From: a virus
Lineage: Duplodnaviria > Heunggongvirae > Uroviricota > Caudoviricetes
IMG/VR virus record: IMGVR_UViG_2734482558_000010
Direction: 5' to 3' (one strand)
DNA: 6,061 nucleotides
The position numbers and the translations under genes were made by a program. Position 1 is the stretch's first letter, and every line of letters begins with the position of its first letter. Below, one piece after another: positions 1,842 to 3,281 of this stretch. Below the pieces are notes generated by a model that saw only the letters and a list, made by a program, of their open reading frames with translations, was not told the origin of the DNA and made no database searches.

Positions 1842-2900
1842 GTGCGGGTATTACTTCGACCTGTTCTGGTACCGGAACTCGGTCTGGTTATCGTTAAGCC
1901 AGGCCGTGAATCAATGTCAGCATTCCATAACGGCAGAATACTGGTGGAGCCGGAACCAAAAAGCATGCGTAATCTGCCGTCCGGGGTCGTTCCTGCCGCT
2001 CGCCAGCCGCTGGTGGAAGACAAAACATTGCTGCCGTTTTTCAGTAACGCACGGGTGATTCGTGCTGCTGGTGGTGCTGGTGCATTGTCTGACTGGCTGT
2101 TGCGCCATATTAAATCCTGCCAGTGGCCACACGGCGATTATCATCACAGCGAAACCGTCATTCACCGTTATGGTACCGGCGCAATGGTGTTGTGCTGGCA
2201 CTGCGACAACCAGCTGCGTGACCAGACATCCGAATCACTCGAGCAACTTGCTCATCAAAACCTGTCAGCATGGATGATTGACGTCATCGGTCACGCAATA
2301 AGCGGTACGCAGGAGCGTGAATTATCTCTGGCTGAATTATCCTGGTGGGCGGTCCGCAATCAGGTGGCGGACGCGCTACCGGAAGCGGTATTACGTCGTT
2401 CGCTGGGGTTGCGTGCGGAAAAAATTCGCTCTGTGTACAGTGAAAGCGACATCATACCGGGAGAGCAGACAGCCACCAGCATACTGAAGCAGCGCACAAA
2501 AAATATTGCGTTACTGCCTCACGTCCACCAGCAACAGAACCCACCACAGGAAAAGACGGTGGTCAGCATTGCCGTTGATCCGGAGTCACCGGCTCAGTAT
2601 CTCCAGCGCCAGAAATCACAACGGGAAGAGATGCCTGTATACACGCGCTGGGTAAAAACGCAGAAATGCATGACGTGTGGCAATCAGGCAGATGATCCGC
2701 ATCACATCATTGGTCATGGACTGGGAGGGATGGGAACAAAGGCTGATGATTTGTTTGTTATTCCGTTATGCCGTAAATGCCGTAACGAACTACATGCCGG
2801 AGTAAAAGATTTTGAAGAGAAACACGGCAGTCAGCTGTTGTTGCTGATTCGTTTTTTAATGCACGCGAGAAATTCGGGTGTTCTGAAGTGGAAAGCATAA
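1842..2900 (+). CDS. DUF968/YdfU-like prophage protein, 352 aa, with a C-terminal HNH-like Cys/His motif
   Basis: Long ORF; C-terminus CMTCGNQADDPHHIIGHG...LCRKCRNELH fits a CxxC...DxHH...CxxC...H HNH-type pattern. Stop is immediately followed by the rusA ATG. Start codon uncertain (GTG 1842, or in-frame ATGs at codons 25 and 42). Confidence 0.65.
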   Translation: MRVLLRPVLVPELGLVIVKPGRESMSAFHNGRILVEPEPKSMRNLPSGVVPAARQPLVEDKTLLPFFSNARVIRAAGGAGALSDWLLRHIKSCQWPHGDYHHSETVIHRYGTGAMVLCWHCDNQLRDQTSESLEQLAHQNLSAWMIDVIGHAISGTQERELSLAELSWWAVRNQVADALPEAVLRRSLGLRAEKIRSVYSESDIIPGEQTATSILKQRTKNIALLPHVHQQQNPPQEKTVVSIAVDPESPAQYLQRQKSQREEMPVYTRWVKTQKCMTCGNQADDPHHIIGHGLGGMGTKADDLFVIPLCRKCRNELHAGVKDFEEKHGSQLLLLIRFLMHARNSGVLKWKA

Positions 2901-3281
2901 ATGACCGAGCGCATAGAATTTGTTTTACCTTACCCGCCGACGGTGAACACTTACTGGCGTCGTCGTGGCAGCACATATTTTGTATCAAAAGCCGGGGAGC
3001 GTTATCGCCGGGCAGTGGCGCTTATTGTTCGCCAGCAGCGGCTGAAATTAAGCCTGTCCGGAAGGTTGGCAATAAAAATTATTGCAGAACCACCGGATAA
3101 GCGCCGCCGTGACCTGGACAATATTCTGAAAGCGCCGCTGGATGCGCTGACGCATGCGGGGTTGCTAATGGACGATGAGCAGTTTGATGAAATCAATATC
3201 GTTCGTGCTCAGCCAGTATCTGGTGGACGTCTGGGGGTGAAGATTTATCCCATAATGCTTGAAGGGCAGGTCAAAAAATGA
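2901..3281 (+). CDS. rusA: RusA-family Holliday-junction resolvase (crossover junction endodeoxyribonuclease), 126 aa
   Basis: Size and conserved acidic motif (PPDKRRRDLDNILK...LMDDEQFDE) typical of RusA; the TGA overlaps the next gene's ATG (ATGA at 3278-3281). Confidence 0.85.
   Translation: MTERIEFVLPYPPTVNTYWRRRGSTYFVSKAGERYRRAVALIVRQQRLKLSLSGRLAIKIIAEPPDKRRRDLDNILKAPLDALTHAGLLMDDEQFDEINIVRAQPVSGGRLGVKIYPIMLEGQVKK

Follow-up and report, generated by a model that had tools for sequence, protein, structure and literature searches.

The stretch of DNA analysed here, hereafter the window, comprises 6,061 nucleotides of a virus of the class Caudoviricetes (IMG/VR record IMGVR_UViG_2734482558_000010). 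Annotation of its open reading frames (ORFs), together with Pfam and PHROG assignments, identified it as the nin-to-Q segment of a lambda-like prophage, with the gene order hok/sok (939-1264), a remnant small gene, a DUF968 gene of the YdfU type (1842-2900), rusA (2901-3281), Q (3278-4132) and phage tRNA genes. This report concerns the DUF968 gene, ydfU, the penultimate gene of the nin region. At the DNA level the closest relatives were Shiga toxin (Stx)-converting phages, the 'PPompW' phages and thousands of E. coli prophages. The locus adjoins ompW in several complete genomes that encode an identical DUF968 protein, and insertion sequence (IS) elements flank it in six of the six listed loci with that protein. 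The first and last 99 bp of the window (1-99 and 5963-6061) are perfect inverted repeats of each other (100% identity) and correspond to the ends of two opposed IS3-family elements in related genomes. Since inverted IS3-family ends lie at both termini, the 5.9-kb prophage remnant between them is bracketed by inverted IS copies.

The DUF968 gene encodes a protein of 352 amino acids on the plus strand, from a GTG start codon at 1842 to a TAA stop codon at 2898-2900. The start is backed by a Shine-Dalgarno sequence (GGAGG, 1833-1837, plus strand) situated 4 nt 5' of the GTG, with the TAA stop of the upstream remnant gene in between, by the conservation of the N-terminal residues in homologues of 25-48% identity and by independent gene calls in related genomes, where the same codon was chosen. 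Pfam DUF968 (PF06147) matched residues 160-344 with 210.3 bits (E 2.6e-62) against a gathering cut-off of 27.8, and PHROG 96, annotated as 'HNH endonuclease', aligned residues 1-349 with profile positions 1-334 of 334 (E 1e-162). The protein is 78% identical to YdfU of E. coli K-12 over 347 residues and collinear with it over the full length. The 352-residue ORF is a real gene and not a chance ORF. No NCBIfam model matched the protein, and nothing useful emerged when the PDB was searched by sequence and by profile, using the protein and the homologue alignment.

An identical protein constitutes the Shigella sonnei / Shigella multispecies allele and was present on at least 1000 contigs and in 3132 indexed blocks of the collection. 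Residues 249-266, approximately, form a different mosaic segment relative to YdfU of the K-12 Qin prophage; a compensated frameshift was considered as the cause of this divergence and rejected in favour of mosaic sequence. In database homologues P0146, P0174, P0176, P0226 and P0127 the N-terminal 150-300 residues of DUF968 are joined to tail-fibre, tail-tip or portal domains. These fusions are most likely products of prophage deletion or misassembly and are uninformative as architectures.

A C-terminal HNH or His-Me finger domain was delimited at about residues 266-345 (2637-2876, plus strand) from Pfam, conservation and hhalign comparisons with YbcO, Gp16 of phage phiNM1 and Ref of phage P1. 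The domain contains the Cys/His set C276, C279, H287, H288, C310, C313 and H318, and residues 261-328 matched Pfam HNHc_6 with 28.0 bits against a cut-off of 26.6. An AlphaFold2 model of the full protein, built on 31 diverse homologues, reached a mean predicted local distance difference test (pLDDT) score of 88.7 and placed two strands (285-288 and 306-309) and a helix (311-319) at the C-terminus, a beta-beta-alpha arrangement. Profile comparison with hhalign yielded a probability of 94% (E 1e-7) against Gp16, with the zinc and active-site residues in register, 81% (E 1e-5) against YbcO and 78% (E 2e-5) against Ref, the motifs being in register in both of the latter.

The predicted structural zinc ligands C276, C279, C310 and C313 (C-x2-C ... 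C-x2-C/H) align with C145, C148, C181 and H184 of Gp16. The predicted active site comprises H287, H288, D303, position 314 and H318. Of these, H288, the predicted catalytic His of strand 1, aligns with H157 of Gp16 and H32 of YbcO, D303 aligns with D47 of YbcO, and position 314 and H318, the predicted metal ligands of the helix, align with H185 and H189 of Gp16. Across the 31 homologues (25-48% identity) C276, D303 and P308 were invariant and H288 was conserved in at least 90%; within a closer set of 14 sequences C279, H287, C310 and H318 were invariant and H314 was conserved in at least 90%. Taken together, these profiles and the model identify the C-terminus as a predicted zinc-stabilised HNH (beta-beta-alpha-metal) or His-Me finger nuclease domain, related to YbcO (DUF1364), P1 Ref and phiNM1 Gp16. 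An earlier interpretation made from the letters alone, the sequence-only reading, had described a YdfU-like ORF of 352 residues ending in TAA at 2898-2900, an ATG for rusA at 2901 and an overlap between rusA and Q, and all of these coordinates proved exact. It had also pointed to a Cys/His pattern of the HNH or zinc-ribbon type and proposed structure prediction as a check; the HNHc_6 match, the hhalign results and the nuclease-like fold of the model bear out an HNH domain.

The copy in the window departs from its family at one position of the predicted active site, a feature that the sequence-only reading had overlooked. Codon CGT at 2781-2783 (plus strand) specifies Arg314, at a position where each of the 118 close homologues, and most of the distant ones, have His. 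Locally the window reads CRKCRNELH, as against CRKCH(N/S)ELH or a near variant in all 118, and Arg314 is the sole residue of the 352 that was seen in none of these aligned sequences. It aligns with an active-site His in two relatives, H134 of P1 Ref and H185 of phiNM1 Gp16. The H-x3-H feature of the helix is therefore satisfied by the family as a whole and only partly by the window copy, where H318 is present and position 314 is Arg. Sequencing error was rejected as the source of H314R, since the identical allele occurs in a large clonal set of genomes and its exact product in thousands of assemblies; the substitution is fixed in the Shigella lineage. Because H314R removes a predicted catalytic metal ligand and the gene resides in an IS-flanked prophage remnant, the nuclease encoded by the window copy is probably weakened or dead. 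The substitution would be consistent with relaxed selection, the prophage having decayed, or with counter-selection of a toxic activity.

The remainder of the protein is dominated by an N-terminal module (residues 1-225; 1842-2516, plus strand) with a confidently predicted fold that includes a beta-hairpin and helix at residues 105-125, joined to the nuclease domain through a linker of low confidence (residues 226-242; 2517-2567, plus strand; pLDDT below 50). Residues 1-210 modelled alone yielded a pLDDT of 91.0 and a predicted template modelling score of 0.80, with the hairpin at 105-118 and the helix at 119-125. A conserved pattern of C93, H or C at 101, H102, C118, W119, H or C at 121 and D122 looks like a treble-clef zinc knuckle as judged from sequence; canonical catalytic residues are missing from this module, the His of strand 1 not being conserved. 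A Foldseek search with the N-terminal model returned nothing significant. Comparison of residues 60-160 with 250-350 by hhalign, as a test of internal duplication, gave the expected register at a probability of 0.7% (E 0.076), which is not significant. The HNH-like character of the module is weak, and its interpretation as a second, degenerate His-Me finger is tentative because the Foldseek search was null and the comparison of the two halves non-significant. An Orf/NinB-like N-terminal domain, a published idea for DUF968, was rejected for the enterobacterial type; it applies to the HNHc_6 proteins of Gram-positive hosts. Neither the Orf/NinB-like domain of Gp16 nor the basic disordered tail of Ref was found in the DUF968 N-terminus. 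We infer that the module recognises a DNA structure or a partner protein.

Immediately downstream, the ATG of rusA abuts the DUF968 stop codon (TAAATG). The gene (2901-3281, plus strand) encodes a Holliday-junction resolvase of 126 amino acids that matched RusA (PF05866) with 61.6 bits against a cut-off of 22.8. In a gap-free alignment to 1q8r, D71, D73, K77 and D92 correspond to the catalytic D70, D72, K76 and D91 of E. coli RusA, and RusA is intact. The Q-type antiterminator gene (3278-4132, plus strand; 284 amino acids) begins with an ATG at 3278 that overlaps the rusA stop TGA at 3279-3281 (ATGA). Upstream, the stop codon of the remnant gene (1838-1840) lies one base 5' of the GTG at 1842, and ORFs 309-476 and 473-817 likewise overlap by ATGA. 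Terminator-like hairpins were found after hok (1333-1350, plus strand) and just 3' of Q (4172-4191, plus strand), and these are the likely upstream and downstream limits of a transcription unit comprising the remnant gene, DUF968, rusA and Q; no strong terminator-like hairpin was found between 1350 and 4172. Co-transcription and translational coupling of DUF968, rusA and Q are plausible from this arrangement. As tight junctions run through the whole operon, such coupling would not be specific to the DUF968-RusA pair.

The Q gene itself has a peculiarity at its 3' end. Relative to other Shigella loci with the same DUF968 allele, 8 bp are absent at 4093/4094; they make up one unit of a short direct repeat (AGGTAAC-), and their loss removes the normal TAG stop codon and lengthens Q from 273 to 284 amino acids.

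Gene order was surveyed in 81 loci, consisting of 80 loci (one genome per species) and one E. coli locus, from a collection built with the closer 14-sequence alignment; RusA was sought with an iterated hidden Markov model. RusA lay directly downstream of DUF968, as in the window, in four loci, all of E. coli, Shigella or E. albertii. In 16 loci it was the gene immediately 5' and overlapped or abutted the DUF968 start; in 31 it lay upstream with one intervening gene of about 0.7-0.9 kb, and in a further four more than 1.1 kb (up to 1.8 kb) upstream. A RusA-family ORF was therefore present on the same strand less than 2 kb away in 55 of the 81 loci, in 20 of which it was directly adjacent in either order. 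No RusA was found within about 4 kb in 26 loci, including the K-12 Qin type and two that have almost no upstream flank. The upstream position, exemplified by L021 (3633-4004), L041 (3624-4004) and L024 (2874-4004), is the commonest arrangement in other Enterobacterales; the intervening ORF is of about 240 amino acids and appeared antirepressor-like by eye in L024, the sole such locus inspected. A Q-like antiterminator follows DUF968 or DUF968-RusA in every locus inspected in detail, a subset of the 81.

Given the 26 loci without a nearby RusA, DUF968 does not require RusA. The two are frequent neighbours in either order, neither requiring the other, and the pairing is one of synteny in that part of the nin region devoted to recombination, a loose functional linkage rather than an obligate two-protein machine. 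The sequence-only reading, which had the two proteins expressed as a unit, was overstated on this point: DUF968 precedes RusA directly in so few loci, the order elsewhere is reversed or interrupted or RusA is absent, and the whole operon is equally tight. Its suggestion of a recombination or replication-restart pair holds in part, in that a role in recombination or replication is the best supported, while obligate pairing with RusA is not upheld.

Much of this framework is already in the literature. DUF968 was recognised in 2014 as containing an HNH motif (PMC4118853), and in 2017 DUF968 and DUF1364 were classified as group 7 of the His-Me finger superfamily, in a study that named YdfU and YbcO, gave RusA and Q as their neighbours and proposed a part in recombination similar to that of NinG and Ref (PMC5714182). 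For YbcO, a treble-clef structure led to the prediction of a nuclease (PMC4999995). Among the relatives, phiNM1 Gp16 has been characterised as a RecA-dependent nickase that interacts with RecA and is stimulated by it; replication of the phage DNA needs this enzyme, which is toxic to the host (PMC12817073, 2026). P1 Ref cuts only RecA-bound DNA and D-loops (PMC4713147). The literature search found no paper testing YdfU itself. The earlier view that DUF968 has no assigned function is thus partly true, given that the HNH assignment and the RusA/Q neighbourhood are published and that a relative has been characterised. The family, its HNH assignment and its neighbourhood being known, the locus is an ordinary one, and the window offers no new biology apart from an allele, probably inactivated, of a decayed prophage. 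The additions to published work are small: an N-terminal module that is not Orf-like and is possibly a second finger, the variable gene order and a lineage-specific active-site substitution.

Among known systems, YdfU of K-12 Qin shares with the window copy the two-module architecture and the place between hok/rem genes and Q; there, however, ydfU is followed directly by Q without an intervening rusA, and position 314 is His (CRKHHNELH) rather than Arg. A striking parallel to the window is offered by YbcO (PF07102, DUF1364; PDB 3g27), encoded by DLP12 and phage 82 directly 5' of rusA and just before Q, as DUF968 is here; in DLP12 this stand-alone HNH gene overlaps rusA by ATGA. YbcO is a stand-alone domain of 96 amino acids and lacks the N-terminal module possessed by the window protein. 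DLP12 also encodes a separate Orf-like protein, YbcN, upstream, to which the window protein shows no similarity.

The HNH core of Gp16, from a Staphylococcus phage, is homologous to that of the window protein at approximately 24% identity over the core, and both present the motif C-x2-C ... H ... C-x2-[C/H]-H-x3-H, with Arg in the window in place of H185. Gp16 scored 389 bits on Pfam HNHc_6 and also exceeded the DUF968 cut-off. Phage phiNM1 also encodes RusA, downstream of the Gp16 gene on the same strand. The N-terminus of Gp16 is Orf/NinB-like (PMC12817073), whereas the N-terminal module of the window protein is unrelated to Orf. P1 Ref (PDB 3plw) is likewise a phage-encoded, recombination-enhancing HNH protein with a homologous core, but it has a basic disordered DNA-binding tail at its N-terminus and belongs to a separate Pfam family, RecA_dep_nuc, to which the window protein had no match. 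Lambda Rap (NinG), a structure-specific endonuclease with a role in phage recombination, occupies the same genomic slot upstream of Q as DUF968. It too belongs to the His-Me finger superfamily, but to group 24 (PMC5714182). Membership of DUF968 in the Rap/NinG family was rejected for want of significant profile similarity: there was no Pfam match to PF05766, and hhalign gave a probability of 8.5% confined to the PCxxCG...H motif.

On this evidence we consider it reasonably probable that 1842-2900 encodes the Shigella allele of YdfU, an accessory nickase of recombination or replication that is loosely linked with RusA and probably crippled in this copy. The DUF968 gene, rusA and Q lie in one terminator-free stretch, and the abutting or overlapping stop and start codons would keep the three translated together. 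By analogy with Gp16 and Ref, an active YdfU may nick branched or RecA-bound DNA, for example D-loops or stalled forks, with the N-terminal module supplying recognition of a substrate or partner. Such nicking could stimulate recombination of the phage genome as well as its recombination-dependent replication, and RusA would then resolve the resulting four-way junctions. Several points weigh against this account. For RecA dependence and the choice of substrate the account extrapolates from relatives with which YdfU has only the HNH core of about 70 residues in common, and the N-terminal module of YdfU differs from both that of Gp16 (Orf/NinB-like) and that of Ref (basic disordered tail). In addition, 26 of the 81 loci, K-12 Qin among them, have no RusA within about 4 kb. 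As to the crippling of the window copy, H314R may not abolish function, since the equivalent substitution in Gp16, H185A, relieved toxicity only in part (PMC12817073).

A more elaborate version of this account, which we regard as speculative and rather unlikely, would make YdfU-type proteins tandem His-Me finger enzymes, in which a degenerate N-terminal finger recognises branched DNA or the RecA filament and the C-terminal finger nicks. With RusA they would form an 'initiate and resolve' module of recombination-dependent replication distinct from the Orf-HNH type (Gp16) and from Ref, and the repeated loss of catalytic residues in resident prophages, H314R of the Shigella allele being an example, would reflect selection against toxicity.

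The same HNH chemistry could instead be directed mainly at the host chromosome, where cleavage of RecA-bound or replicating DNA would arrest host replication or boost the SOS response for lytic growth. The closest characterised relatives, Gp16 and Ref, to both of which the HNH core is homologous, behave in this manner (PMC12817073, PMC4713147), and the fixation of an active-site change in a cryptic prophage resident in its host would be in keeping with counter-selection of a toxic nuclease. Toxicity has so far been reported for Gp16 and never for YdfU itself, however, and most loci have the gene next to a resolvase, in the recombination part of the nin region and not at an early position typical of host shutoff. 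In mechanism this explanation overlaps with the phage-directed nickase, from which it differs only in target, and we judge it doubtful. A less probable alternative dispenses with cleavage altogether: the His-Me scaffolds would serve only as zinc-finger modules that bind DNA or protein, and YdfU might act on a DNA structure, or possibly with Q, as a DNA-binding accessory. Consistent with this, the beta-beta-alpha-like core of the N-terminal module lacks a catalytic His at the end of strand 1, family members P0200, P0205 and P0223 have lost both the HH motif and the His residues of the helix, the window allele carries H314R, and the gene directly downstream is a Q-like antiterminator in every locus inspected in detail. 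Adjacency to Q is, however, generic lambdoid gene order and not specific evidence, and the conservation of the predicted catalytic residues, H288 and D303 being invariant or nearly so across the 25-48% identity homologues and H314 and H318 conserved in the 14-sequence set, argues that the chemistry is retained in most family members.

Two further explanations are much more improbable. The sequence-only reading had raised an anti-host or anti-phage role, and prophages often carry defence genes, among which a nuclease for superinfection exclusion might be envisaged. The anti-phage part of that suggestion found no support: neither DUF968, RusA and Q nor the adjoining genes matched any model of PADLOC-DB, DUF968 has no associated sensor or partner gene, and in 81 of 81 loci it keeps to one place, co-oriented with the lytic nin-Q genes, unlike the content of a variable moron island. 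The other, to which we attach equally little weight, is a selfish free-standing homing endonuclease or a packaging-associated HNH protein. Free-standing HNH genes are frequent in phages, and the gene is patchy among lambdoid phages, lambda having rap and DLP12 ybcO instead. Yet identities within the family have fallen to 25-50% with no change in its place upstream of Q, which argues for long residence rather than recent invasion; the gene lies far from the terminase and cos genes, and a large conserved N-terminal module is atypical of homing HNH enzymes.

YdfU/DUF968 is among the commonest uncharacterised genes in prophages of E. coli and Shigella; 5135 sequences belong to the cluster of the window protein. 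Should YdfU prove to be a RecA- or structure-dependent nickase, this would bear on prophage induction, on the replication and recombination of Stx phages and on phage mosaicism. The gene adjoins Q in Stx phages, and in a genome-wide association study a ydfU variant tracked with stx2 prophages associated with haemolytic uraemic syndrome (PMC11950266), an association that most likely arises by linkage.

Several other features of the window were recorded. The hok/mok toxin gene at 939-1264 is accompanied by an Rfam sok match of 112 bits. The ORF at 1482-1766 begins like Rem of K-12 (MMKIEELREIF...) and at about 1575-1585 gives way, out of frame, to the 3' portion of another conserved small gene, which ends with the TAA at 1838-1840 and has an intact counterpart in a related locus (L001, 6456-6734). 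The stretch 1482-1840 is a deletion or mosaic junction that has left a chimeric ORF.

The window lacks the methyltransferase gene that comes after Q in related loci. Its tRNA region occurs in duplicate (4195-5520), with tRNA-Arg(TCT) at 4411-4487 and again at 5442-5518; its first copy is approximately 88% identical to a related locus, and a masked run of N occupies 5133-5401. The tRNA at 4235-4310 was called Met(CAT) here, and a related genome has it annotated as tRNA-Ile. An ORF of 117 amino acids (4598-4951), situated between the tRNA-Arg copies, matched PHROG 2873, of unknown function (E 4e-70), and had no Pfam or PADLOC match. A full-length match to the STnc100 small RNA family (124 bits) was located 3' of the last tRNA, at 5595-5784.

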